A stretch of 64,000 nt of DNA from Alphaproteobacteria bacterium (GTDB taxonomy: Bacteria; Pseudomonadota; Alphaproteobacteria; Sphingomonadales; JAKSBY01), in assembly GCA_021774625.1 (NCBI GenBank), contig JAJFIV010000008.1:295045-359044 (forward strand). The letters run 5' to 3'. Both the position numbers and the translations under genes were made by a program. Of the stretch, positions 3,197-41,740 are shown in pieces (the first letter of the stretch is position 1; every line of letters starts with the position of its first letter). Below the pieces are notes generated by a model. The model did no database searches and had not been told where the DNA came from. It was given only the letters and a program-made list of their open reading frames with translations.

Positions 3197-4426
3197 ATGT
3201 TAATAAATAAAAAACTGGCTTTTACCTTGGCGGCCCTTGCCGGTTGGGGCATCTGCAAAACCTCCGCGCTCTCTGCTGATGAGGAAACAATCATCTCTGT
3301 TTTCGAGGATGCCAGGCTCCTTTTTGACAGCAGATTGCGTTATGAATTTGCTGACATGGAGGGGTTTGAGCGGAACGCGAACGCACTGACTTTTCGCAGC
3401 CGTTTTGGCTTTCAAACAGGGGATTACCATGGCTTTCAGGGCCTGGTCGAAGGCGATTTTACGCGCGACCTGGGTGTCAACAATTTCAATAGCACCACAA
3501 ATGGCCTTGTGCAGTTTCCCGTGATCGCCGACCCAAACTCGGAACGCCTCAATCGCCTGCAATTGAGCTATAATGGCATAACCGGCACCAATCTCACTGT
3601 GGGCCGGCAGCGGATCAAGCTTGATAATGACCGCTTTATCGGCAATGTCGGTTTTCGCCAGAACGAGCAGACATTCGACTCTGTCAGGTTAACCAATAGC
3701 GCCATTTCCAATCTGACCCTGGATTACAGCTATTTATGGCAGGTTAACCGTATTTTCGGCAGTAATTCGGTGAATGATCAGGCAGATGCAGACACCCATT
3801 TGATCAACGGGAGTTATGAGTTACCTTTCGGTAAAATTGTAGGCTATGCTTATTTGATCGATTTGGATGACTTGCCCCTGGCGTCCAACCAGACCTATGG
3901 CGGCCGATTGATTGCCAATCACAAAATTGATGAGGCGTGGACGCTCTTCCTGACAGCTGAGTACGCCAACCAACAGGATCTGGCCAACAATCCGGATGAA
4001 TTCAACCTGGATTATTTTTTGATAGAGCCCGGCGTTAAATGGAAACAGTTGACGGTCAAGGGGGCCTTTGAATCGCTGGAGGGAAATGGCCAAAGAGGTT
4101 TCGCGACGCCGCTCGCGACCTTGCACAAGTTTCAGGGTTTTGCGGACGTTTTTTTGAATACGCCGGCAAGCGGTATCGAAGATTTACAGTTTAATGTTGA
4201 TTATCGCCTTCAGGATGTCGCGGGCATTGGCCCGGTAAGGCTGGCTGCGTGGTACCATGATTTCAACAGTGAGACCGGCTCGCAAGGTCTGGGGCGCGAG
4301 TTTGATTTTGGCGTTTTTGTAACGCCCTGGAAAAATGTGACTTTCTCGGTGGAATACGCAAATTTCAATAGCAGCGCCCGTGCTGATTTACGGCGTTTAT
4401 TTCTCACGCTGGAAGTCAAATATTAG
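3197..4426 (+). CDS. Alginate-export-family outer-membrane beta-barrel porin
   Basis: Signal peptide; RLRYE, GRQRIKLDNDRFIGNVGFRQNEQTFD and FATPLATLHKFQGFAD motifs; C-terminal aromatic residue (EVKY). Confidence 0.8.
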   Translation: MLINKKLAFTLAALAGWGICKTSALSADEETIISVFEDARLLFDSRLRYEFADMEGFERNANALTFRSRFGFQTGDYHGFQGLVEGDFTRDLGVNNFNSTTNGLVQFPVIADPNSERLNRLQLSYNGITGTNLTVGRQRIKLDNDRFIGNVGFRQNEQTFDSVRLTNSAISNLTLDYSYLWQVNRIFGSNSVNDQADADTHLINGSYELPFGKIVGYAYLIDLDDLPLASNQTYGGRLIANHKIDEAWTLFLTAEYANQQDLANNPDEFNLDYFLIEPGVKWKQLTVKGAFESLEGNGQRGFATPLATLHKFQGFADVFLNTPASGIEDLQFNVDYRLQDVAGIGPVRLAAWYHDFNSETGSQGLGREFDFGVFVTPWKNVTFSVEYANFNSSARADLRRLFLTLEVKY

Positions 4427-4699
4427 AACCCTGATCCGGACTATCCGGCGCCTTACCTCTGGAGGGACGTTGCAACCTGTACATGTGATATGCTGGATTG
4501 GCGGGACAGTCTTTGCACTGAATCGAGTGCTGCGCGGAATTTCCGTTGGCGCGGCCCCCCTTGCTCTTCCACGGATGCCGCGGCGCTGCCTGCTAACAGC
4601 TGACCAGCCTGTCACCCTGATTTGTGAGAAAGTGCCTTGTTATTACCAGGCACTTTCCTTACCTATATGGCTCACTTTTGAGCCCTTATCGAGATTGAT

Positions 4700-10452: not shown

Positions 10453-10854
10453 TTAATTGACTTTGGTTGCGCCCATTTCTTCGGCGAGAAGTTTCATTAT
10501 TTTGTAAAGCCGCTTGCGCATGGCGGGATCGTTAATGCCATAAAAAACCCGGATCCATTCAAGCATTTCCCGGTCACCCGGGGTTTCATCCGGTCCTTTA
10601 CGGCCCTTGCCGCCTTTCCATTCCATTCCTTCATAATCTTCAAAGAAAAATGCAACGGGAACATCAAGAATTGTGCTCAGCCGGTAAAGCCGGCCGGAAC
10701 CAATACGATTGACGCCCCGCTCATACTTTTGAATCTGCTGGAACGTGATACCAAGCGCTTTACCCAAATTTTGCTGGGTCATACCCAGCATCGTTCGGCG
10801 CATACGAACTCTCTGCCCGACATGGACGTCCATGGGGTCAGCTTTTGAAGTCAT
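10453..10854 (-). CDS. XRE-family HTH regulator, PraR/PhrR-like
   Basis: DVHVGQRVRMRRTMLGMTQQNLGKALGITFQQIQKYERGVNRIG..RL...L.VPVAFFFE. Confidence 0.88.
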   Translation of the reverse strand: MTSKADPMDVHVGQRVRMRRTMLGMTQQNLGKALGITFQQIQKYERGVNRIGSGRLYRLSTILDVPVAFFFEDYEGMEWKGGKGRKGPDETPGDREMLEWIRVFYGINDPAMRKRLYKIMKLLAEEMGATKVN

Positions 10855-11120
10855 TTTAGGCTCCCTTTTTACTCATGTACAAATATTTAAAACAACCTCT
10901 CGGACATATCCATAATAAAATGCTTTTCGCAGAAGTCGAGAAAGTTTTGAGTATTTTTTTCAAATAAAAAAATTAAAATTCTATTTTAGCGGCAAGTAAC
11001 GGCACCCACCGCTGGAAAACCATAATGTTAAGGGAGCCTGCAGATTATGGACTTATCCGGATGCGGCGGGCGACGCTGCCTGATTTGGTTTTTTAAGCCT
11101 TTGATTTATTTCTATAATAT

Positions 11121-12518
11121 TTAGGCAGCCAGGCGTTGCGTAGTCTTTCTTTGCCGCCTCCTTGCCCGCACTATCACCGGCCCTCCCGGCCTTAACGTGG
11201 TCATCGGCACGGGTTCCAGGATCTGACCGGGAACAAGTTCCAGTGCGAACTCTTTGGCGAGAATTGCCAGGGTTAATGTTCCTTCCATTTCGGCGAATCG
11301 GTTGCCGAGGCATACATGGGGGCCGCCGCCAAAAGGAAAAAAGGCGTATTTCAGACGTTCCTCATCGCGCTGATCAAGGAAACGGTCCGGATCAAACCCT
11401 TCAGGATTATCCCAGAAGCCGGGATGGCGGTGCATGACATAAGGGTTCAGCATAACGGTTCCGCCCTTGGGGATAACAAAGCCGTTGAGATTGTCTTCTT
11501 CCACGGCGGCCCGGGTCATTGTCCAGGCCGGGGGATAGAGCCGGAGAATTTCCTTAAACACCGCCCGGGTGTATGTCAGGCGGCCGATGGCGCCGATATC
11601 GACGGGGGAACCGTCCAGAACAGCCTCCGCCTCTTCGGCAACCCTGTTCGCCACCCCTGGATATTTCGACAGCATACAGGTCAGCCAGGCCAGGGAATTG
11701 GCTCCGGTCTCGTGCCCCGCAAGCAAAACGGAGATCACCTGATCGCGCAAAGATTTCCGGGAATTATCATCAAAGCCGGCGGCCTCTTCCATCAAAATCA
11801 GCATCCCGAGCAGGTCATCCCCCCTGTCCCGGGCGTCAAGCCGCTCATTGATCAGCCGATAGACAATGGCGTCCAGAGCCCCGACATGCGCCCTGAAGGC
11901 CCTGTTCTTTTTTGTCGGCAGCCAGTCAAGCACGGGGAAGAAAGTCCACATGCGCCGTTCCACCTCGCGCAGCAGCGCAGTGAGCGAACGATAGACCGTC
12001 TTGGCGTCGTCGTCTGTCAGATCATTGGAGAAAAAGGAGCGCATGACGACATCAAGGGTCAGATGGGCTGCCTCATATGACATATCAAACGCTTCGTCCC
12101 GGCCGTGATACTCACGGATCCGCCCAACCAGAGCCTGGGTGGAATTCACCATATGGGCAACCATTTTCTTCAGGTTTGGACCGCTTACGGAGGGCTGCGC
12201 GGCCTGGCGCTGTTTCTGCCAGCCTTTGCCTTCAAGGGTAAACAGACCCTCGCCTAAAATAGGGGAGAGATGGCCATAATATTTACTGCGGACATAATTG
12301 TCGCGGTTATCCTGAAAAATGCGGCGAATAAGGTCCGGGTGATTGATCATATAAACCATATCCCGGCCCAGTTTCAGGGGCACCACATGGCCATAATCCC
12401 GCGACGCGCCGGTCAAAAAACCAAGCGGGTCGCGCCAAATCAGCGGCAATACACCCAGAACGGGAACACCCTTGGGCCCCAATCCAGGTTTCTTGAGTTG
12501 AGGCGATGCATTAGTCAT
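11121..12518 (-). CDS. Cytochrome P450
   Basis: I-helix AGHET, ExxR (EILR), FDPDRF, heme motif FGGGPHVCLG; start overlaps the upstream stop (ATGACTAA). Confidence 0.95.
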   Translation of the reverse strand: MTNASPQLKKPGLGPKGVPVLGVLPLIWRDPLGFLTGASRDYGHVVPLKLGRDMVYMINHPDLIRRIFQDNRDNYVRSKYYGHLSPILGEGLFTLEGKGWQKQRQAAQPSVSGPNLKKMVAHMVNSTQALVGRIREYHGRDEAFDMSYEAAHLTLDVVMRSFFSNDLTDDDAKTVYRSLTALLREVERRMWTFFPVLDWLPTKKNRAFRAHVGALDAIVYRLINERLDARDRGDDLLGMLILMEEAAGFDDNSRKSLRDQVISVLLAGHETGANSLAWLTCMLSKYPGVANRVAEEAEAVLDGSPVDIGAIGRLTYTRAVFKEILRLYPPAWTMTRAAVEEDNLNGFVIPKGGTVMLNPYVMHRHPGFWDNPEGFDPDRFLDQRDEERLKYAFFPFGGGPHVCLGNRFAEMEGTLTLAILAKEFALELVPGQILEPVPMTTLRPGGPVIVRARRRQRKTTQRLAA

Positions 12519-12822
12519 CTTCAGTCTCCAATCCGAGCATGTTCTCGATCTGAGCCAGGCTCACCCGGCTAAAAGAATCCGCATCCAAAAACACGGTTTC
12601 TGATCCTGCTCTCTGGGGTGACAGGCCGGTCCAGCCGTCTTTACAGGGCCTGCCGAGATATTCATTGATGGCCAGCGACGCAGAATTCAGCAGGTCCGCC
12701 ACAAACGACATTTCGAGCTTCCGCGATTCTTTCGCCAGATATTCAATGGCAATTTTTATCTCGACAGGTCCCGGCAAATCAGCAAGGGCCAAATCTTCAT
12801 TGTCGCCGATATATGTTTTCAT
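12511..12822 (-). CDS. Small hypothetical protein coupled to luxI and P450
   Basis: 103 aa; TAATG overlap with the luxI stop, SD AAGGA, 8-nt overlap with the P450 start. Confidence 0.75.
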   Translation of the reverse strand: MKTYIGDNEDLALADLPGPVEIKIAIEYLAKESRKLEMSFVADLLNSASLAINEYLGRPCKDGWTGLSPQRAGSETVFLDADSFSRVSLAQIENMLGLETEDD

Positions 12823-13472
12823 TATGCTGCTATCCTTCTCGGCTCGGCATAGGTTTCCGCGATCACCGGGGCATATATTCCTGAATTTTCACGAATAACA
12901 GCCAGCATCCGCTCCGAAATTTCAAAGGTCGCGACCTGAGCGATGCTATGCGGCAGTCTTTTCGGCTTGCTTGACCAGACCGGACTTGCGCCGACACGCC
13001 GTAAAAGCCGGCCGACACGGACGTCGTAAACCGTGATCACTTCCCTGATGCCGTTCGGGATACAATATTCGCCGAGCGCGCAAAGGAGCTCGGCCGTAAT
13101 CCTGCCAAATGCTTTCAGGCCGCATTCCGTCTCGCAGTCGGCATCCACGGCAAACCGGCTTGCCTCCCACATCCGGCTTTTTTCGGGGACGGGCGCGCCG
13201 CCCATCAGATCAGAAAACACATCCCGCAGCATGTTGGGCCCCTGGGTCGGCAGAAGCCGCCAAGTGGCGTTGACTGCGCCCGTTTCATCACTGGATACAA
13301 AATAAATCGGATTGAGCGAGGGATCGTCAAACTCGTCAATTTCCAGACCATTTTGAACTTTTACCTGCCAATTCTGTCTTTCCTTAAAAACCCGATACCG
13401 CAGGGCATGGACTTCCGTGCGGACACGCGGATTTGCCGCAAGTGAAACACTGTCATAAATGTGTATCATCAA
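12822..13472 (-). CDS. luxI: Acyl-homoserine-lactone synthase (LuxI family)
   Basis: LRYRVF..RQNW, EIDEFD, RLLPT.GP.ML..VF, WEASRF; the start may be the ATG at 13469. Confidence 0.95.
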   Translation of the reverse strand: MMIHIYDSVSLAANPRVRTEVHALRYRVFKERQNWQVKVQNGLEIDEFDDPSLNPIYFVSSDETGAVNATWRLLPTQGPNMLRDVFSDLMGGAPVPEKSRMWEASRFAVDADCETECGLKAFGRITAELLCALGEYCIPNGIREVITVYDVRVGRLLRRVGASPVWSSKPKRLPHSIAQVATFEISERMLAVIRENSGIYAPVIAETYAEPRRIAA

Positions 13473-13501
13473 TCCTTACTCCATTGTTGAAGGAGTAAGG
13501 A
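13473..13501 (-). promoter_or_regulatory. 10-bp hairpin sequestering the luxI Shine-Dalgarno
   Basis: Minus strand TCCTTACTCC-TTCAACAAT-GGAGTAAGGA directly before TTG ATG. Confidence 0.65.
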
Positions 13502-13519
13502 GGGCGTATATGCCTCTCG

Positions 13520-13551
13520 AAAAACACCTACCCGGCCGGGTAGGTGTTTTT
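13520..13551. promoter_or_regulatory. lux box inside a 32-bp perfect palindrome (possibly also the luxR terminator)
   Basis: AAAAACACCTACCCGGCCGGGTAGGTGTTTTT; core 13526-13545 is ACCT-N12-AGGT. Confidence 0.8.
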
Positions 13552-13580
13552 ATAAGTTAAAATGCAATAGGTGCTGGGCG

Positions 13581-14330
13581 CTACGGACGGATCAGATGCA
13601 TGGTGATTGCCTTGGTCACCGCGTAAACACGGGAGCTGGCCCCTAATTTCCGGCAGGCATTCCGGATGTGAAACTTTACACCGTCTTCGGATATTCCGAG
13701 GATAACGGAAATGTCCCAGCTGGATTTGCCGCGCGCCACCCAGGTCAGAATATCCGCTTCGCGCTCCGTCAGGGCGGGGCTGGGTTCGCCTTTACTGGAA
13801 AAAAACTTATCCCACAGGACATTATGATAAAAATTACCCAGCAGAATGAGGTCGGCGGCTCCCACCTTGCGGATTTCATTCATTTCGGACGTCAGGCCGT
13901 CAAAAGAAAAAGTCAGACAGGAAAATTCACCATTCGGCCCATTGATAGGCACCGAAACGCCGCGCTCGATACCGGCATCCGAGCCTTCGCCGCATATGCG
14001 TTTCTGTTTTTTCGACAACTGGTTATAGGAGGTGGTTTCATCCCAGGAAAACGGCATGCGCCGCGTTCTTGCCTTCACCAAAACCGGGTCGCAGAAAATG
14101 TAGTTTTTTTCAACATAGCGCTGGAGCCAGTAATCCGGATAATTGGTCGCATAATAGGACCGCATATCGGGAAAAGGCGGATAAAAGGAAAGATAGCTGT
14201 ATCCGCCAAAACCCAGCGAACTGCAGAAATCGGCTAATTTACCTTCCAACGCGCTGGCAGAATCGCATGCCAGCATCTCATCGAAGGTTCCTGATGCAAT
14301 GTCCATACAGCCCACACATCCAAAGCACAT
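13581..14330 (-). CDS. luxR: AHL-binding LuxR-family transcriptional regulator
   Basis: NYP..W..RY...Y..CDPV, PFSW, GVSVP, LTERE..IL.W...GKSSWDI..IL..SE..V.FH; the start may be 14306. Confidence 0.95.
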   Translation of the reverse strand: MCFGCVGCMDIASGTFDEMLACDSASALEGKLADFCSSLGFGGYSYLSFYPPFPDMRSYYATNYPDYWLQRYVEKNYIFCDPVLVKARTRRMPFSWDETTSYNQLSKKQKRICGEGSDAGIERGVSVPINGPNGEFSCLTFSFDGLTSEMNEIRKVGAADLILLGNFYHNVLWDKFFSSKGEPSPALTEREADILTWVARGKSSWDISVILGISEDGVKFHIRNACRKLGASSRVYAVTKAITMHLIRP

Positions 14331-14415
14331 TCCCCCGGCATATCCGGTTGCAGAGTATATACAACTTTAATAAAAAGCCAATAATTGCGTAAAAGAAACG
14401 GAAAATAAATTAAAA

Positions 14416-14790
14416 TTAGGATCCGGACTGTTTCCTTTTTGTTTTCTTCCTCTTTTTCTGTTTCGCCCGCAGGGCGGCCGCCACACCCTCCCTTGCCCAT
14501 TCGATCAATAAGTCCTGATCCTCCAGGCAGCCTTCCGGCGCAGAATAATAGGACATGCTCGCCGTCTTTCCGTCCTTCATCACAAAAGTAAAAGGCGCCA
14601 GATTGTTGCGTTCAAATTCTGCCCGGTTTTCATTATCAACCTTAAAATACAGCGCCTCGTCATCAAGAATGGCGAAGAATAATTCATCGCAATAAAGCCC
14701 GGCCCCGCCGAACATGCGTTTTACGCGGATAACACCCAGCGGGCTGAGCTGATCGGTGATAAAATCGAGGAATTCCCTGCTGACCGCCAT
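14416..14790 (-). CDS. TfoX/Sxy N-terminal domain protein
   Basis: KRMFGGAGLY...FFAI...LYFKVD...PFTF...MSYY. Confidence 0.85.
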   Translation of the reverse strand: MAVSREFLDFITDQLSPLGVIRVKRMFGGAGLYCDELFFAILDDEALYFKVDNENRAEFERNNLAPFTFVMKDGKTASMSYYSAPEGCLEDQDLLIEWAREGVAAALRAKQKKRKKTKRKQSGS

Positions 14791-14791
14791 A

Positions 14792-15127
14792 TCAGCGCTC
14801 CTGCCTGTTTTTTGTCTCTGGCGGCAGCCTCAATGTAAGACCGTCCAATGCGTCGGTTACGACGATCTGACAGCCGAGGCGGGACGTTTTTGCAACCCCG
14901 AATGTCAGGTCCAGCATATCATCCTCCTCTTCCAGCGGCTTTGGAATTTTATCGAAATAACGCCGGTCCACCAGAACATGACACGTGGAGCAGGCCATTG
15001 CGCCGCCACACGCCCCTTCTATATCAAGGCCGTATTTATGGGCAATTTCCAGCACCGTCAGGCCGGGCGGGACATTGAATTCCGCCTGTTCCGACCCGTC
15101 GGCACTGATGAATATGATCCTTGGCAT
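14792..15127 (-). CDS. fdx: Adrenodoxin-type [2Fe-2S] ferredoxin
   Basis: EGACGGAMACSTCHV...EDDMLD...SRLGCQI. Confidence 0.92.
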   Translation of the reverse strand: MPRIIFISADGSEQAEFNVPPGLTVLEIAHKYGLDIEGACGGAMACSTCHVLVDRRYFDKIPKPLEEEDDMLDLTFGVAKTSRLGCQIVVTDALDGLTLRLPPETKNRQER

Positions 15128-16290
15128 CAGGACCCCGTCGCCGGGTTATTTTTGCGGACGGCTTCTATGATCCGCCCGGCGGCAAACTCAAGTTCTTCCA
15201 AAGTGGTGAAGCGGCCGAACCCGATACGCAGCGAAGAGCTTGCCGCTGCTTCATCCAGTCCGAGAGCCTGTAGAACATAGGAAGGCCCTTCCATCGCGGA
15301 CGCGCAGGCTGCGCCGGACGACATGGCGATATCCCTGAGGTCGGCCAGCAGCCGGTCGCCGTCAGCACCCGGAAAGGTCAGATTGAGATTGCCGGGATAG
15401 CGCGCCCTCTCACTGCCATTGATGACGAGATCCGGAAGGCCTTCGCGCAGGCGCGAGAGAAAATGCGCTGCATTCCGCCCGGTTTCGGCAAGTTCCCGTT
15501 CCCGGCGCTCCGCGGCAATCACCGACGCCGCCCCCAGCCCGGCGCAGAGCGCCGGTGAAAGCGTCCCGGAACGAATGCCCGCCTCCTGACCGCCGCCATC
15601 CATCTGCGGCACAATCCGGCTTGCTTTCAGGTTCCGGACATACAGCGCGCCAATGCCCTTGGGGCCATATATTTTATGGCCGGATATACTCATCAAAGCC
15701 GCATTGATGTCATCCGCTGACAGTGGAATTTTGCCGAATGCCTGGGCGGCGTCCGTATGGAACGGCACCCCTTTTTCGCGGCAGAGCTCACCGATCTCCG
15801 CCAGCGGCTGAATGACGCCGATTTCATTATTGACCGCCATGACCGAAACCAGGGCCGTGCGGCCGGTCATGGCTTCGGCCAGCTGATTCATATCAAGAAG
15901 GCCATCACTGCCGACCGGCAGATACGTGATATCCGCTCCCGAACGCCCTGCCGCCGCTGCTGATTCCAGCACGCATTTATGCTCGGTCGCCACCGTGATC
16001 AGATGGTTCTTGTGCGGCAGGGATGCCGCCAGTGTGCCCTTGATCGCAAGATTGTTGGATTCCGTTGCGCCGGATGTGAAAATCATATCGACCGGATCAG
16101 CCCCGATGACAGCGGCCACCTGTTCCCGCGCAAGATCAACGGCCGCCTCCGTTTCCCATCCGAAGCGGTGCGTGACGGAATGCGGGTTGCCGAATCTGCC
16201 CTGAAGATAAGGCAGCATGGCATCGAGCACAGCCGGATCCAGAGGGGTTGTTGCCTGATAATCCAGATAGATGGAAGGCGTTACTGCCAT
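15127..16290 (-). CDS. iscS: Cysteine desulfurase (IscS-like)
   Basis: YLDYQATTP, FTSGATESNN, HTDAAQ, SGHKIYGPKG, SSGAAC. Confidence 0.9.
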   Translation of the reverse strand: MAVTPSIYLDYQATTPLDPAVLDAMLPYLQGRFGNPHSVTHRFGWETEAAVDLAREQVAAVIGADPVDMIFTSGATESNNLAIKGTLAASLPHKNHLITVATEHKCVLESAAAAGRSGADITYLPVGSDGLLDMNQLAEAMTGRTALVSVMAVNNEIGVIQPLAEIGELCREKGVPFHTDAAQAFGKIPLSADDINAALMSISGHKIYGPKGIGALYVRNLKASRIVPQMDGGGQEAGIRSGTLSPALCAGLGAASVIAAERRERELAETGRNAAHFLSRLREGLPDLVINGSERARYPGNLNLTFPGADGDRLLADLRDIAMSSGAACASAMEGPSYVLQALGLDEAAASSSLRIGFGRFTTLEELEFAAGRIIEAVRKNNPATGS

Positions 16291-16294
16291 ATTT

Positions 16295-17437
16295 TTACTC
16301 CACCGCGCGCTGTGTGCTGCGGGTCCTGCTGCGCTGATAATGTTCCCGCCAGGCTTTTACCAGCAGATCGATATCCTCGGCGACCGTCTGCCAGCCAAGG
16401 CTGACCCGAATGGCGGAGCCTGACAAACTCTTCCCATCCGCCGCCATGGCGGCAATCACATGCGATGGCGTCACCTTGCCGGAAGAGCAGGCGGACCCGG
16501 AGCTGACACAAATGCCGGCAATATCCATCGCCATGACCTGGGTTTCGCCGGCAAGACCCGGGACCGCGAAACAGGAAGTATTGGCCAGCCGTGCGACCCC
16601 GGCGCCAAAAAACTGCGCTTCCGGGGCGATCACGGCAATTTCATTTTCCAGCCGGTCCCTGAATGCCGCCAGTTTTGCATAGCCGGACAGGTCCGCAACG
16701 GCGATCTCCACCGCCGCGCCAAACCCGGCAATGCCGGCGAGATTTTCGGTGCCCGAACGGCGGCCCAGTTCCTGGCCGCCGCCGACAATCAACGCGGAAC
16801 CGGGAACGGATTCCCGGATCACCAGCGCGCCGACACCATGCGGCCCGCCAAGCTTGTGGGCGGAAATGCTCATAAAATCCGCACCGAGCGTCCGAAAGTC
16901 CACCGCTATCTTACCAAAAGCCTGGACTGCATCGCAGTGCAGAAGGCCGCCTTTTTCATGCACCAGCGAGGCAATAGCCGCTATCGGCTGAATGACGCCG
17001 GTTTCATTGTTGGCCAGCATGATCGAAACCAGCACCGGCATCTCACTCTCGCCCAGCATCTTTTCAAGCGCCGCCATGTCAACAAGACCATGACGATCCA
17101 CCGGGACAATCGAAACCGGCAATCCGCTCACCGCCGCCGCCGCACGGACGCTGTCATGCTCGATCGCCGAAAGGATCAGCGATTTGGCGCGGTTGTTCCT
17201 GAGCGCCGTATTGTTGGATTCCGTCCCGCCGCTGGTGAAGATGATTTCCTGCGGCTTGCAGTTAAGCGCGGTTGCGATTTTGGCCCGCGCCCGCTCGACG
17301 GTTTGCCGCGCCTGCCGCCCTCTGGCATGAACCGAAGAGGGATTGCCGCCGGTTGCAAGCATCGCGGTCATCATCTCGACCACCTGGGGTCTCGGCAATC
17401 CGGTCGCGTTATAGTCAAGGTAAATTTGTCGCTGCAT
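16295..17437 (-). CDS. Cysteine desulfurase family protein (NifS/IscS-like)
   Basis: YLDYNAT, FTSGGTESNN, HCDAVQ, SAHKLGGP, SSGSACSSG; start set at MQRQIY. Confidence 0.9.
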   Translation of the reverse strand: MQRQIYLDYNATGLPRPQVVEMMTAMLATGGNPSSVHARGRQARQTVERARAKIATALNCKPQEIIFTSGGTESNNTALRNNRAKSLILSAIEHDSVRAAAAVSGLPVSIVPVDRHGLVDMAALEKMLGESEMPVLVSIMLANNETGVIQPIAAIASLVHEKGGLLHCDAVQAFGKIAVDFRTLGADFMSISAHKLGGPHGVGALVIRESVPGSALIVGGGQELGRRSGTENLAGIAGFGAAVEIAVADLSGYAKLAAFRDRLENEIAVIAPEAQFFGAGVARLANTSCFAVPGLAGETQVMAMDIAGICVSSGSACSSGKVTPSHVIAAMAADGKSLSGSAIRVSLGWQTVAEDIDLLVKAWREHYQRSRTRSTQRAVE

Positions 17438-17589
17438 GGCAAAGACATAAGCCGTTGGCCGCCGGCATTCAATTTTTTTGATGCTCCGCACTACTTCAAG
17501 TAAAGACAATCCTTGCACGGCGGGGGACAAAATCTATATAAGAGCGGTTCCGCAAATGCGCTAGGCGCACCAGTAAAAAGTACCTATCT

Positions 17590-37222: not shown

Positions 37223-40200
37223 TTACGCGGCGGTATCGCCGCCGGCGGCGACCACCAGCCGGGCGAGAGCGGGAAGGGATTTCACGCCGGTCCTGCTGTA
37301 GATGGCCGCGCGGTGCTTCTCGACCGTACGCTGGCTTAAGCCGAGATCGGCCGCGATATTCTTGCTCGGATGGCCGGTGAGCACCATCCCCATGATTTCG
37401 CGCTGTCGCGGCGTAAGCCCGGCGAGGCGATTTGCGGCGCCGTCCCGCCAAGCCGAGTCCTTGGCGGCATCCGCAGACCGCGCGAGCGCCTGTCTGACAT
37501 GGTCGATCAGATCCGCAGCACTGACCGGCTTCTCGATAAAATCGGAAGCCCCGGCCTGTATCGCCCGCATGGCCATCGCGACGTCGCCAGTGCCGGTGAT
37601 CAGGATTTTGGCCAGCCGGCGGTCAACATCCCCGATCCGCTCCAGCAGGGCGAGCCCACCCATTCCGGGCATGCCGACATCGGCTAGCAGGCACGCCACG
37701 CGGCCCGGACGCCAGGAGTCGAGAAAGGATTCCGCGGTGGAGAAAGCTTCAACAGCCAGACCGTCCTCCTCGAGCACATGGCGCAGTTCCTCCAGAACGT
37801 GCAGGTCATCGTCGATGACATAGACGACAGACGTTACCGCAGCCCCATCCGCCGCACCGTCGCTGCTCCGACCGCGCGCGTCCGTCGCCGATGAGGGCGG
37901 CGGCAAAAGTTGACGGATCGCCTCGCTCAGGTCCGCCTGCTGCACGGGCTTGCTGAGATGAACACAGCCCTGTTGCGCGATGTCGCGCAGAGTGCCGGTC
38001 GAGATGTCGCCGGTCAAAATGATGGCCGGCAGCGTCAGGTGGAACCGGTCCTGCATCTTTTCGATGAGCAGGAGACCGTTCATATCGTTCGGCAGATTGA
38101 AATCGGCGATGATGAGGTCCGGACGGACCGCCATCCCGGGGATCATGTCCAGCGCGCTGGGACCATCGGCTGCCGTGACAACATAATGGCCTTCGTCCTT
38201 CAGGGCGAGCCTGAGCGTCCCGCGGACCTCGGGATCGTCCTCAACCACCAGAACCACGCCGGTGGCGTGCGGGGCCGCGCCCTGCGGCTCACCCGATGCG
38301 CTCTCCGGGTCCGACGATGCCCACGCTTTCACGCCTGCCGTGCCTTGCGCCGCCTGCCCGGCAGCATGAGGCGCAAGCGGGACCTCGATGATGAAGGCCG
38401 AGCCCTTGCCGACTTCCGAGCGGGCATGCACCCGATGGCCGAGCAGGTCCGAGAGACGTTGCACGATGGAAAGTCCGAGGCCGAGGCCGCGGCTCGATTC
38501 CCGGGCCGCATTGTCGAGTTGATGATATTCCTCGAAAATTCTCTCCAGCGACTCCCCGGGGATGCCGACGCCGGTGTCCCGGATCTCGATACTAACCATG
38601 CCCTTCCGTCTCCGGCACCCTATCAGGATCTTGCCGTGACGCGTGTATTTGAGGGCGTTAGAAACCAGATTCCGGATCATTTGCTCAAGCAGGTGGGGAT
38701 CACTATGGATCCAGCAGCCGCAGCGGACGAGGCGCAAGTCGAGGCCCTTCGCCCTTGCAAAATATGCGAATTCGTCCTTCAGCCGGCCGAGCGCCTCGTC
38801 AACCGGGAAATCGACCCGGTCCGCGATCACGATGCCGGCCTCGATCTGGTTGAGGTCAAGAAGCGCGTTCAACATGCTCGCCATGGCGGTCGAGGTTTCG
38901 CCAAATCGCCTGACAAGGTCGCGGGCTTTCTCCCCCTCGACCGTTTTGGCCAGAATCCCCTGAATCAGCGTAAGCGTCTGAAGCGGCTGACGCAGGTCAT
39001 GGCTGGCGGCGGCGAGAAAACGCGATTTCGCGAGATTGGACCGCTCGGCCTCACGTTTGGCCGCCTCAAGGGCTTCTGATATTTGCCGTCGTTCGGTGAT
39101 ATCGGTATAGGTGATGACAACGCCACCGTCTTCATTGTCGTCGGTGCGGTAGGGCAGAACGCGGCGGACGTACCAGGCTCCGTTGCGCTTCGCGATTTCG
39201 TGCTCGAGCGTCACCCGGGTCCGCAACACGCGCCGGGCGTCGTCCAGAAGGGCGCTGTCGTCGGCCAGCGCCTGAAGATCGGCGAGCGGCCGCCCGATGT
39301 CGCTCGAAATGACGCTGAAGAGGGATTTTGTTGCCGGCGTGAAAAAGCGGATATTGAGGCCGGCGTCGAGGAAGAGCGTCGCGACATTGGTGCTGTAGAG
39401 AACGTTTTGCAGATCACTGGAGACCGTTTTCTCGCGTTCCAGCGTTTCATGAAGCTGGCTGTTGAGCGCGGTCAGTTCTTCATTGAGCGACTGCAATTCC
39501 TCCTTCGAGGTTTCCAGCTCCTCGTTCGTCGCCTGGAATTCCTCGTTGATGGACAAGGCCTCTTCGTTGATCTCCCTTTGCTCCTGCGTCATGTCCTCGA
39601 GATTGCGCACGGCATCCGAAAGCTCGGTTCTGGTGGCTTCGAGCTCCCGCTCGAGCTCTGCGACCTTCGATGCCTCTTCCGGCGCTACGGGGCGATCCTG
39701 CGGGGGTTCCTGATCGGGCCTTTCGACAAAGCAGACCAACAGCAGCGAGTCGTCTTCGAACACAACCGGTCTTATGTCGATGTCGAATACCTGGCCGTCG
39801 CGGTTACGGCCGATTGAACCCGAGGCAAGGAGGATGCGTTCCTCCTTTTGCATGGCCTGCCGCACTGCCGCCCGGAGTCGGGTGCGCACGCCATCGCGGG
39901 CCATGGCGAAAATGTCGTGTTTCGGCGGTCCGGGAACGACGCGAAGATAGCGGTCCGTCGGCCCGAGCGTGTAAAGGCACTCATAGTGCCGATTGATCAG
40001 GGCCGCCGCGGGGGCATGGTTCTCGACCACCAGGCGCTGGCACAGGGCGGCAAGAGCGCCCTGACGCGAGGCCGGCCTGAGCTTGTACTGCCCGGGGACA
40101 TGTATGCTCTCGCCGCCGCCGATCGCAAAACCGAGGTCGCCGGGCCGGGTTCTGGCGGCGTGGCGGTAGACCCGCTCGGGCTTGGACATCATCTCGAAGC

Positions 40201-41635
40201 GATCATCGTCAGAACCGACCGATTCCGATCCGCCGAGAAGAAGGAAGCCGCCCTCGCGCAGCGCGAAATGAAAGAGCGCGAAAATCTTTTCCTGGGCTTC
40301 CGGCCGCAGGTAGATGAGAAGGTTCCGGCAGGAAATCAGGTCGAGCCGCGAAAACGGCGGATCGGAAAGCACGTCCTGAACCGTGAAGACGACCGTGGCG
40401 CGGATTTCCTGCAAAATCCGGTAGCCATGATCCTCCTTGGTGAAGTAGCGGGCAAGCCGTTCCGGCGTGACATCCGCCGCGATCGAGTCCGGATAGAGGC
40501 CTTCACGCGCGATGGCGATGGCGTCCGGGTCGATATCGGAAGCGAAAATCTGCAGCCTTGCCGACTGCCTTGCCGCAGCGACCTGCTCGTGGAGGAGGAT
40601 CGCCAGCGAATAGGCCTCCTCGCCGGAACTGCAGCCGACGCTCCAGATGCGCAGGGGGTTGTCGCGCGAATGCCGGCGGACGAGGTCGGGGACGATCTTT
40701 TCGGCGAGGGAATCGAAAACTGCGGGATCGCGGAAAAAACTGGTGACGTTGATCAGCATGTCCTGGACGAGCAGGTCGATTTCCTTCGCATCGCTTTCGA
40801 GAAGATCGAGATAACGGCCGATATCACCGCGATCGATGGCCGCGAGCGCCATCCGCCGTTCGATCCGCCGCTGCAGCGTTCCGGGCTTGTAGGGTCTGAA
40901 ATCATGACCGGTTCGGGCGATCAGCAAATCAAGGATTTCTGACAGGCGATCCGGCGCGGCAGGCCGCCGGCTCTTTTTGCTGCCCGCGCCCGCCGGCGCA
41001 AGCTTGCGGAAATAATTGACCAGGGCCCCGGGAATCTTTGCCACCGGCAGCACGAGGTCGACCGCGCCGGTCATGATCGCGTTTTGCGGCATGCCGTCAA
41101 AGCCGGCTTCCTCGGGGGCCTGCGCAATGACCAGCCCGCAGTTTTCCTTCACCGCCTTCAGCCCGAGGCTGCCATCGGCTCCCGTCCCCGAGAGGATCAC
41201 GCAGGCGGCACGGTCGCCGGCATTCTCGGCCAGGGATCGTAGAAAGAAATCGAAAGGAAGGCGGGCGCCATGACGTTCCTTCGGCTTCGACAGCCGGAAG
41301 ACACCCCCGCTTATGGCGAGATAGGCGCCGGGCGGAATGATAGTGATGCTGTCGGCCTCGAGCCGCATGCCCTCGGCGGCATGCCGGACCTGCATCGGCG
41401 TATGCTTGGCGAGCAGGTCCACCATCATGCTCGGATGCGTCGGATCGAGATGCTGGATCAGGACGAAGGCCATGCCGCTGGCGGTCGGCAAGGCCTTGAC
41501 GAGCTTGCTGAACGCCTCCAGACCGCCGGCCGACGCGCCGATGCCCACCACAGGCAGGCTGTCAGGCCGATCCGGAATCCTGCTGGCCGATGGCGCACGT
41601 GCGCGCGATCCGACCGTGCGCGAACCTTTGACCAT
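37223..41635 (-). CDS. CheB-CheR-coiled coil-PAS-histidine kinase-REC-REC-LuxR HTH hybrid
   Basis: CheB GASAGG/QH/GTGADG; CheR NVTSFFRD, GCSSGEEAYS; H-box SHDLRQP; DTGVG and GLGLGL; two receivers; LTPRQREI...TVEKHR; start set at MVKGS. Confidence 0.92.
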   Translation of the reverse strand: MVKGSRTVGSRARAPSASRIPDRPDSLPVVGIGASAGGLEAFSKLVKALPTASGMAFVLIQHLDPTHPSMMVDLLAKHTPMQVRHAAEGMRLEADSITIIPPGAYLAISGGVFRLSKPKERHGARLPFDFFLRSLAENAGDRAACVILSGTGADGSLGLKAVKENCGLVIAQAPEEAGFDGMPQNAIMTGAVDLVLPVAKIPGALVNYFRKLAPAGAGSKKSRRPAAPDRLSEILDLLIARTGHDFRPYKPGTLQRRIERRMALAAIDRGDIGRYLDLLESDAKEIDLLVQDMLINVTSFFRDPAVFDSLAEKIVPDLVRRHSRDNPLRIWSVGCSSGEEAYSLAILLHEQVAAARQSARLQIFASDIDPDAIAIAREGLYPDSIAADVTPERLARYFTKEDHGYRILQEIRATVVFTVQDVLSDPPFSRLDLISCRNLLIYLRPEAQEKIFALFHFALREGGFLLLGGSESVGSDDDRFEMMSKPERVYRHAARTRPGDLGFAIGGGESIHVPGQYKLRPASRQGALAALCQRLVVENHAPAAALINRHYECLYTLGPTDRYLRVVPGPPKHDIFAMARDGVRTRLRAAVRQAMQKEERILLASGSIGRNRDGQVFDIDIRPVVFEDDSLLLVCFVERPDQEPPQDRPVAPEEASKVAELERELEATRTELSDAVRNLEDMTQEQREINEEALSINEEFQATNEELETSKEELQSLNEELTALNSQLHETLEREKTVSSDLQNVLYSTNVATLFLDAGLNIRFFTPATKSLFSVISSDIGRPLADLQALADDSALLDDARRVLRTRVTLEHEIAKRNGAWYVRRVLPYRTDDNEDGGVVITYTDITERRQISEALEAAKREAERSNLAKSRFLAAASHDLRQPLQTLTLIQGILAKTVEGEKARDLVRRFGETSTAMASMLNALLDLNQIEAGIVIADRVDFPVDEALGRLKDEFAYFARAKGLDLRLVRCGCWIHSDPHLLEQMIRNLVSNALKYTRHGKILIGCRRRKGMVSIEIRDTGVGIPGESLERIFEEYHQLDNAARESSRGLGLGLSIVQRLSDLLGHRVHARSEVGKGSAFIIEVPLAPHAAGQAAQGTAGVKAWASSDPESASGEPQGAAPHATGVVLVVEDDPEVRGTLRLALKDEGHYVVTAADGPSALDMIPGMAVRPDLIIADFNLPNDMNGLLLIEKMQDRFHLTLPAIILTGDISTGTLRDIAQQGCVHLSKPVQQADLSEAIRQLLPPPSSATDARGRSSDGAADGAAVTSVVYVIDDDLHVLEELRHVLEEDGLAVEAFSTAESFLDSWRPGRVACLLADVGMPGMGGLALLERIGDVDRRLAKILITGTGDVAMAMRAIQAGASDFIEKPVSAADLIDHVRQALARSADAAKDSAWRDGAANRLAGLTPRQREIMGMVLTGHPSKNIAADLGLSQRTVEKHRAAIYSRTGVKSLPALARLVVAAGGDTAA

Positions 41636-41689
41636 GTTGCTCTTTTTCCCTCGCACATCCGGTGAACTTGCGGGCCGCAAGTGTAGCAC

Positions 41690-41711
41690 AATTTTGGATT
41701 GATCCAAAATT
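41690..41711. promoter_or_regulatory. 22-bp palindromic operator upstream of the CheBR hybrid
   Basis: AATTTTGGAT-TG-ATCCAAAATT, 4 bp upstream of a minus-strand -10-like TACACT (41685-41680). Confidence 0.55.
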
Positions 41712-41740
41712 AAAGCTGTCGTTCCTGGCAAGAAAGCCGA

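Follow-up and report, generated by a model that had tools for sequence, protein, structure and literature searches.

How does a cytochrome P450 come to be encoded in one operon with an acyl-homoserine lactone (AHL) synthase, and which molecule does it oxidise? This question is raised by a 64,000-nucleotide stretch of an alphaproteobacterial genome (GenBank assembly GCA_021774625.1, contig JAJFIV010000008.1, positions 295,045 to 359,044; hereafter the window, in whose numbering all coordinates are given). A preliminary description of the window, made from the sequence alone, had noted a luxR-luxI-orf103-P450 cassette with overlapping genes under a lux box and had proposed that the P450 either tailors or quenches the AHL signal. 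The observation itself is confirmed by our analysis, while the interpretation attached to it is only partly supported. In our view the P450 may oxidise the AHL made by the neighbouring synthase, although this reading remains tentative.

We first re-examined the genes and their junctions. All four open reading frames lie on the minus strand. The luxR gene (14330-13581, 249 aa) encodes an AHL-binding LuxR-type transcription factor, which matches Autoind_bind (PF03472, 3e-29, 101.9 bits) and GerE (PF00196, 3e-18, 65.6 bits), with LasR (1.5e-24) and TraR (4.4e-23) as the best solved relatives. As the preliminary description had stated, the conserved W, Y, D-P, W and G positions of the ligand site are retained in the alignment to LasR (YPDYW, RY, CDPV, FSW and GVSVP). 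The luxI gene (13472-12822, 216 aa from the TTG at 13472, with an ATG at 13469) encodes an AHL synthase matching Autoind_synth (PF00765, 4.4e-36, 124.6 bits against a cut-off of 24), whose best solved relative is LasI (9e-25), and it is the only strong luxI in the genome. It is followed by orf103 (12822-12511), which has no Pfam or NCBIfam hit, and by the P450 gene (12518-11121, 465 aa; PF00067, 2.7e-84, 284 bits). Reading of the reverse complement confirms both overlaps: luxI ends in GCA GCA TAA and shares one base with the ATG of orf103 (TAATG), whereas the ATG of the P450 gene lies within the GAT GAC TAA end of orf103 (ATGACTAA, an 8-nt overlap).

The P450 carries the hallmarks of the family. 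The heme-thiolate loop of the type FxxGxxxCxG (F394-P-F-G-G-G-P-H-V-C403-L-G), with the heme ligand Cys403 in FPFGGGPHVCLG, the ExxR motif (EILR, E323 and R326) and the acid-alcohol pair of the I-helix (AGHETG, E270-T271) are invariant in an alignment of seven sequences. It is the only P450 in this 3.0-Mb genome.

Upstream of luxI we found a perfect 20-bp palindrome, ACCTACCCGGCCGGGTAGGT, at 13526-13545 (24 bp with flanks), which occurs once in the genome at up to three mismatches, while the backwards-read control gave 0. A lux box is an inverted repeat of about 20 bp centred near -42.5 from the transcription start; here, where the position could be measured only against the start codon, the centre lies about 66 nt upstream of the luxI ATG at 13469. 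In 13 of 27 related luxI loci the best 20-bp palindrome in the upstream 130 nt is likewise centred 60-71 nt from the luxI start, and many share ACCTCCCAA..TGGGAGGT-like half sites. The element is a lux-box-type candidate operator, but as a GC hairpin flanked by T runs it may also, or only, terminate luxR. The luxI leader additionally contains a predicted stem-loop (13473-13501, minus strand) which pairs the Shine-Dalgarno sequence GGAGUAAGGA with an upstream UCCUUACUCC (10-bp stem, 9-nt loop). Its MFE is -19.8 kcal/mol with z values of -4.6 to -4.75, the second lowest z among the leaders of 38 long open reading frames in the window, and across related loci the pairing probability of the Shine-Dalgarno sequence is 0.72 for luxI against 0.51 for luxR. 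A search of positions 10800-14500 against Rfam returned nothing that reached a gathering score.

To evaluate whether the P450 is linked to luxI by more than chance, we examined P450 homologues in other genomes; that homologues would lack such linkage had been named beforehand as grounds for rejecting the idea. In the order-level sample, the six best homologues (37-52% identity) all have luxR-luxI directly upstream on the same strand, whereas 23 weaker hits do not. In a first tree of 99 rows, nine of nine linked P450s form one clade (support 99); from this tree we left out the loci L017, L041, L042, L097 and L104 (stop in the extracted frame), the duplicates L034, L036, L056 and L082, and hits shorter than 380 aa. 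In a second tree of 72 P450s, 28 form one clade (support 96), of which 27 sit beside luxI and the 28th lies at a contig end, its luxR-luxI-small ORF being located at the start of another contig; none of the 44 other rows is linked. This second tree omitted the duplicates L171 and L205, the loci L158 and L162 (no intact single-frame P450 extracted) and, for speed, about 60 outgroup rows of the first tree. The clade spans at least 14 families, and three genomes carry two cassettes, each with its own P450. The linkage is not chance, and the outcome is in favour of the preliminary description. Overall, the gene order recurs in at least 24 other genomes, and at least 18 of 400 sampled alphaproteobacterial species carry the cassette. 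The latter count is a lower bound, as it excludes 16 hits without loci in an earlier search and 62 weaker P450 hits without loci in a later one, of which only G406, G450:C117, G563:C1 and G641:C111 (genome and contig handles) were retrieved. In a phylum-level sample of 400 genomes only two hits reached E<=1e-100, one from the same class, which is luxI-linked, and one from another class, which is not. The best P450 hit on plasmids (Skermanella pTT6-1, 36% identity) has no luxI nearby. Cultured Pelagibius strains have named close hits to both the P450 and the small ORF.

The small orf103, which the preliminary description left without a role, is not an orphan. It encodes a small helical protein of an unnamed family (core VEIKIAIEYLAKESRKLEMSFVADLLNSASLAI), for which a profile search found 199 representatives at E<=1e-3, spanning 53-135 aa. 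Members usually sit directly after luxI, with or without the P450; the open reading frame lies there in 17 of 30 class-level loci and in most cassettes. We considered an acyl carrier protein, a ferredoxin or a RiPP precursor and rejected these identities, since the family has no conserved Ser or Cys, no Pfam or NCBIfam hit and no PDB sequence match (best E 0.22). An obligate P450 partner is also unlikely, as the P450 occurs without the small ORF at the loci L036, L200 and L202, and the small ORF occurs without the P450. A search of plasmids with the family member P0028 returned nothing. The position of orf103 matches that of CinS and MmaP, small proteins which are co-transcribed with luxI homologues and bind the regulator PraR (PMC4149787, PMC10790750). 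In line with this, a gene for a PraR-family XRE helix-turn-helix regulator, likewise overlooked before, lies directly downstream of the P450 (10453-10854, minus strand, 133 aa; HTH_3, 6.8e-12 at residues 17-69, compared to residues 19-73 of the approximately 140-aa PraR of R. leguminosarum, PMC4149787). The genome holds four such genes. The copy in the window is followed by a convergent DEAD-box helicase gene and thus lacks the downstream metK that marks the canonical praR (PMC10790750); a copy on another contig (C20), 55% identical, does have metK downstream, so that the window gene is a paralogue and not the orthologue. PraR-type genes lie within the retrieved flanks of 6 of 23 cassettes, in three different arrangements, and beside a lone small ORF (locus L139). 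A complex prediction of orf103 (residues 1-65) with the PraR-like protein gave a score of 0.00 against a mark of 0.32, which counts neither for nor against binding.

Taken together, we propose the following circuit for this LuxR/LuxI quorum-sensing module. The luxR gene would be transcribed on its own, and LuxR bound to signal would activate the translationally coupled luxI-orf103-P450 operon through the palindrome. LuxI would make an AHL, probably with a long chain, and the P450 would oxidise the acyl chain of that AHL, so that the released and sensed signal is an oxygenated AHL. Electrons would come from a reductase-ferredoxin pair encoded on another contig (C2) or from the nearby 2Fe-2S ferredoxin (14792-15127); the latter, to which the preliminary description alluded, sits in an Fe-S assembly operon, and the former pair is the better candidate. 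In this view orf103 is no P450 helper but a separate output arm, made in step with the synthase, that binds and inactivates a PraR-type regulator, most likely the paralogue encoded right after the P450. The gene identities, the overlaps, the palindrome, the exclusive luxI linkage of the P450 clade and the recurrent nearness of PraR-type genes follow directly from the data, whereas the substrate and product of the P450, co-transcription and the binding of orf103 to PraR are inferred. The proposal gains some support from other cassettes, in which further tailoring or activation genes follow the P450 (a PhyH dioxygenase, an AMP-binding acyl-CoA ligase in two intact cases and one split case, and an SDR with an EamA transporter), giving the locus the look of a small biosynthetic cluster. 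On the other hand, the cassette in the window has none of these extra genes and encodes no redox partner, no chemistry or expression data exist for this organism to support the reading, and the nearest characterised P450s act on terpenoids, carotenoids and sterols.

Two further arguments of the preliminary description are weaker than they appeared. The Thr in VITV of LuxI had been taken as a hint of a 3-oxo acyl substrate, but in an ungapped block it aligns with T142 of LasI, while the 3-oxo determinant of LasI is T144, a position occupied by Tyr149 here; the 3-oxo inference therefore has no support. The comparison with the fatty-acyl hydroxylase CYP102A1 is likewise weak, as the similarity to its heme domain is only 1e-36 and a fused reductase is absent.

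Among the alternatives, built-in signal turnover survives best, although we regard it as unlikely. Hereby the P450 would oxidise the cell's own AHL to an inactive product, so that induction of the operon also induces decay of the signal and sharpens or resets the quorum response. Co-expression with the synthase and the strict luxI linkage of the clade fit this reading equally well, the P450 sits behind the putative lux box in what would be the autoinduced operon, and the only published P450-AHL chemistry known to us is the inactivating oxidation reported for CYP102A1 (Chowdhary 2007, cited in PMC5479921). Sequence alone does not separate tailoring from quenching. However, translational coupling of a synthase to its own destroyer would be wasteful and no such case is known to us, the ligase, PhyH and SDR genes of other cassettes look biosynthetic, and the similarity to CYP102 is distant.

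Somewhat less likely still is precursor tailoring, in which the P450 would oxidise a free acid, acyl-CoA or acyl-ACP that LuxI then couples to the homoserine lactone ring. An acyl-CoA ligase gene follows the P450 directly at the loci L151 and L160, and in split form at L155, which fits LuxI enzymes that use CoA-activated unusual acids, and BjaI and RpaI, which use CoA substrates, are detectable relatives of the LuxI studied here (5e-12 and 2e-7). Yet the window has no ligase next to the cassette, its LuxI is closest to the ACP-dependent LasI, and the ligase was seen in only 3 of the 20 cassettes whose downstream genes were listed. Finally, a quorum-controlled effector acting on an unrelated terpenoid, sterol or xenobiotic met at high cell density would agree with the closest characterised P450s, with the target genes often carried behind luxI and with orf103 as itself a proposed output gene in that position, but it is similarly doubtful, as a mere target gene would not be expected to form a clade that is luxI-linked in 27 of 28 members across at least 14 families, nor to be duplicated together with luxI.

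Our literature searches found no paper describing a P450 linked to luxI. As far as we know, AHL diversity has so far been attributed to the acyl donor choice of the synthase. A dedicated oxidase genetically welded to the synthase would add a post-synthetic layer of signal diversification, or a built-in signal clock, and would explain reports of unusually hydroxylated AHLs in marine Alphaproteobacteria. It is possible, though tentative, that a whole subfamily of P450s has co-evolved with LuxI synthases in Alphaproteobacteria, and that P450-oxygenated AHLs are the true ligands of the neighbouring LuxR proteins. These would then be an unrecognised chemical class of quorum signals, present in roughly one in twenty alphaproteobacterial species and produced by a compact four-gene cassette together with a CinS-like antirepressor that rewires a PraR-type regulator. 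The small-ORF family, currently unannotated in public databases, would extend the CinS/MmaP idea from two model organisms to a class-wide module, in which a synthase-coupled antirepressor acts on PraR-type regulators.

Compared to known systems, the closest parallel in gene arrangement is that of CinS and MmaP. As in these cases, a small open reading frame with no known domain lies directly after the luxI homologue and is coupled to it, and PraR-family regulators are present, four in the genome and one adjacent. MmaP, with 59 aa (PMC10790750), falls within the size range of the family found here. The likeness is one of position, no hit named CinS or MmaP appeared in our searches, and orf103 has a 40-residue C-terminal extension shared only with the sequence P0002. 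Moreover, a P450 follows the small ORF here, and none is described for cin or mma in the accounts consulted. Chemical evidence that alphaproteobacterial AHLs can carry extra hydroxyl groups comes from the poly-hydroxylated AHLs of the marine Rhodobacteraceae strain MOLA 401, for which the authors guessed that a P450 is responsible (Doberva et al. 2017, PMC5479921); no gene linkage or enzyme test is described in the account consulted. The closest solved structure is that of CYP170A1 (albaflavenone monooxygenase, 3dbg), which matches at 2e-59 over residues 4-451, with CYP97 and CYP46 also among the nearest solved relatives. The corresponding NCBIfam model NF051859 scores 3.7e-81, but its 273 bits are far below the cut-off of 700, so the P450 is not an equivalog, and there is no terpene synthase context. 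CYP102A1 (P450 BM3) of Priestia megaterium belongs to the same broad Pfam family and can hydroxylate acyl chains of AHLs (cited in PMC5479921). It is, however, a fused P450-diflavin reductase of about 1050 aa, which acts as a quencher in a Gram-positive bacterium that makes no AHL, whereas the protein described here is a stand-alone P450 with a single p450 domain, encoded in the synthase operon of the predicted producer itself.

All genes of the cassette lie on the minus strand. Hereby, luxR (14330-13581) encodes a protein with an autoinducer-binding domain and a GerE helix-turn-helix, luxI (13472-12822) encodes an autoinducer synthase, orf103 (12822-12511) matches nothing in Pfam or NCBIfam, and the last gene (12518-11121) encodes a complete cytochrome P450. 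Reading of the reverse complement confirms both gene overlaps, i.e. the luxI stop and the orf103 start share one base (TAATG), and the P450 start lies 5 nt before the orf103 stop (ATGACTAA). In an alignment to LasR, LuxR keeps the conserved ligand-site residues. The P450 possesses the heme-thiolate loop with Cys403, the ExxR motif and the I-helix Glu-Thr pair, all of which are invariant among its closest relatives. The arrangement reported in the preliminary description, a luxR-luxI-orf103-P450 cassette with overlapping reading frames, is therefore correct in every detail.

A perfect 20-bp palindrome, ACCTACCCGGCCGGGTAGGT (13526-13545), is located between the luxR stop and the luxI start. It occurs once in the 2.99-Mb genome, even when 3 mismatches are allowed. 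To evaluate whether this element is conserved, we determined the best 20-bp palindrome in the 130 nt upstream of luxI for 27 related luxI loci. In 13 of them it is centred 60-71 nt from the start codon, compared to 66 nt here, and many share the half site ACCTCCCAA. A terminator would conserve structure, not sequence and distance, and we therefore read the palindrome as a putative lux box. In this genome it is also flanked by A and T runs, so that it could terminate luxR as well.

Directly before the luxI start, a 10-bp stem pairs the Shine-Dalgarno sequence with an upstream complement (13473-13501, minus strand; z about -4.7). Among the leaders of 38 long ORFs in the window only one folds more strongly relative to shuffles, namely the 56-nt region around the start of the long ORF at 37223-41731 (minus strand; -32.6 kcal/mol, z -6.9). 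Stem-loops sequestering the Shine-Dalgarno sequence recur, with different sequences, in most related loci (luxI leaders of loci L034-L037, L056 and L151-L170). Across related loci, the Shine-Dalgarno region of luxI is more paired than that of luxR in the same loci, with mean pairing probabilities of 0.72 and 0.51, respectively (paired Wilcoxon p = 1e-5 on 22 loci, which are, however, related to one another). This may represent a translational brake on the synthase. No Rfam family matches the region.

The genome contains one strong luxI and exactly one P450. To evaluate whether the linkage of the two genes is conserved, we first searched 400 genomes of the same order, of which 45 besides the window's own show a P450 hit at E<=1e-40. 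Of the 29 loci examined, the six best (37-52% identity, three families) all have luxR-luxI directly upstream on the same strand, while the 23 weaker ones do not. A scan of named genomes added two more linked loci, from an Alphaproteobacteria MAG and a Rhodovibrionaceae MAG, whereas P450s of similar identity from Acidobacteriota, Rubrobacter and other phyla have no luxI. In a tree of 99 P450s, the nine linked ones form one clade with support 99. We then repeated the test on 400 alphaproteobacterial species, with the loci annotated by our own profiles. Here, a tree of 72 P450s contains a clade of 28 with support 96, of which 27 are next to luxI, and the 28th lies 230 nt from a contig end in a genome whose luxR-luxI-sORF lies at the start of another contig. 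None of the other 44 P450s is linked. At least 18 of the 400 species, in at least 14 families, carry the cassette, which is a lower bound because weaker hits were not all examined. Three genomes carry two cassettes, each with its own P450. In one cassette (L162, 3227-4669, genome G646) the P450 matches the profile in two pieces within one frame region (3227-3685 and 3707-4669) and may carry an insertion or be damaged. In a phylum-level sample only one further linked case was found, again in the same class. The test named beforehand as one that could contradict the proposed connection, namely whether the P450 homologues are not linked to luxI, thus fails to refute it.

A direct search with orf103 returned one homologue among 5.8 billion proteins. 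However, small ORFs (sORFs) in the same position in related loci share a core, I/L-K-x-A-L-E/D-F/Y-L-x-x-E-[SA]-x-x-L ... A-x-L-I-G-x-A. A profile built from ten of these ORFs found 199 representative proteins of 53-135 residues in 1.84 billion, none of which has a Pfam domain or any name but 'hypothetical'. In the class sample the family occurs in 34 of 400 species plus the window's genome. Of the 30 loci fetched, 14 are luxI-sORF-P450, 3 are luxI-sORF with no P450 in the flank, and 13 have the sORF without luxI. Two of those 13 (L128 and L129) lie directly after an orphan luxR gene, and one (L139) lies next to a PraR-type regulator gene with no quorum-sensing genes in the 1.5-kb flanks. The window's genome itself holds a second family member (contig C32, 3779-3991, plus strand, locus L150; 70 aa, profile E 1.9e-7), which stands alone next to a mutL-like gene and is not beside luxI. 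Divergent copies fill the luxI-P450 gap in the cassette loci L185, L186 and L206, while L036, L200 and L202 have no room for one. The sORF and the P450 are therefore separate modules, each attached to luxI.

A possible role for orf103 is suggested by CinS, a small protein that is co-transcribed with a luxI homologue and binds PraR (PMC4149787), and by Methylobacterium fujisawaense, in which the 59-residue MmaP is encoded directly after mmaI, is co-transcribed with it, and pulls down with PraR (PMC10790750). The gene right after the P450 in the window (10453-10854) encodes an XRE regulator with its HTH at residues 17-69. The genome contains four such paralogues, and the one on contig C20 (55% identical) is followed by metK, the context used to recognise praR in Methylobacterium (PMC10790750). 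PraR-type genes lie within the fetched flanks of 6 of 23 cassettes, in three different arrangements, i.e. after the P450, before luxR on the same strand, and divergent from luxR. With about four copies per 3-Mb genome, fewer than one such neighbour would, by our estimate, be expected by chance in 23 loci. We therefore read orf103, by analogy, as a putative CinS/MmaP-like antirepressor aimed at the neighbouring PraR paralogue, although a complex prediction gave no verdict and binding remains an inference.

The sequence of the P450 gives no substrate. Its nearest solved relatives are CYP170A1 (2e-59), CYP97, CYP46 and CYP102 (1e-36). LuxI is closest to LasI, which weakly suggests a long acyl-ACP substrate. 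The Thr of LuxI that the preliminary description took as a sign of a 3-oxo substrate aligns with LasI T142, while the position corresponding to T144, the determinant in LasI, is Tyr here, so that this inference is unsupported. The proposed interpretation as a whole, a P450 that either tailors or quenches the signal, is partly supported. The context favours a role in making the signal: the clade is exclusive to luxI (27 of 28 members, with the remaining one close to a contig end), the P450 sits inside the presumably autoinduced operon, and it is duplicated together with luxI. Moreover, in other cassettes it is directly followed by a PhyH dioxygenase plus a second sORF paralogue, by AMP-binding acyl-CoA ligases, or by an SDR plus an EamA transporter (L034, 6371-7464, also L168; L151, 8856-10385; L160, 8834-10375; L154, 8799-10608), which look like small signal-biosynthesis clusters. 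Poly-hydroxylated AHLs have been reported from a marine Rhodobacteraceae strain, whose authors guessed at a P450 without noting any linkage (PMC5479921). While the gene identities, the overlaps, the palindrome, the luxI linkage of the P450 clade and the recurrent proximity of PraR-type genes are direct results of the analysis, the substrate and product of the P450, co-transcription of the cassette and binding of orf103 to a PraR-type regulator are inferred. On this basis, we tentatively favour oxidation of the finished AHL, without considering it established. Self-quenching of the signal appears unlikely but is the best of the alternatives, followed by oxidation of a precursor, which we consider somewhat less likely still. 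That the P450 acts on an unrelated quorum-controlled substrate appears equally doubtful.

Electrons could be supplied by a putidaredoxin-reductase-like flavoprotein (404 aa, Reductase_C 1.3e-29) whose gene is directly followed by that of a small 2Fe-2S ferredoxin on contig C2 (locus L216, 1447-3042, minus strand). As the genome has a single P450, this pair is a plausible redox chain for it. Alternatively, the 2Fe-2S ferredoxin encoded at 14792-15127 (minus strand; fdx_isc-like, 6.6e-22) is a candidate. The latter ends an operon with two cysteine desulfurase genes (15127-17530), and a TfoX N-terminal domain gene (14416-14790, minus strand) lies between it and luxR.

Full-text literature searches found no description of a P450 linked to luxI. 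What appears new is the conserved combination, the exclusive P450 subfamily and the breadth of the sORF family, while all the parts belong to known kinds, namely LuxR/LuxI, a P450 and a CinS-like output, the last of these by inference.
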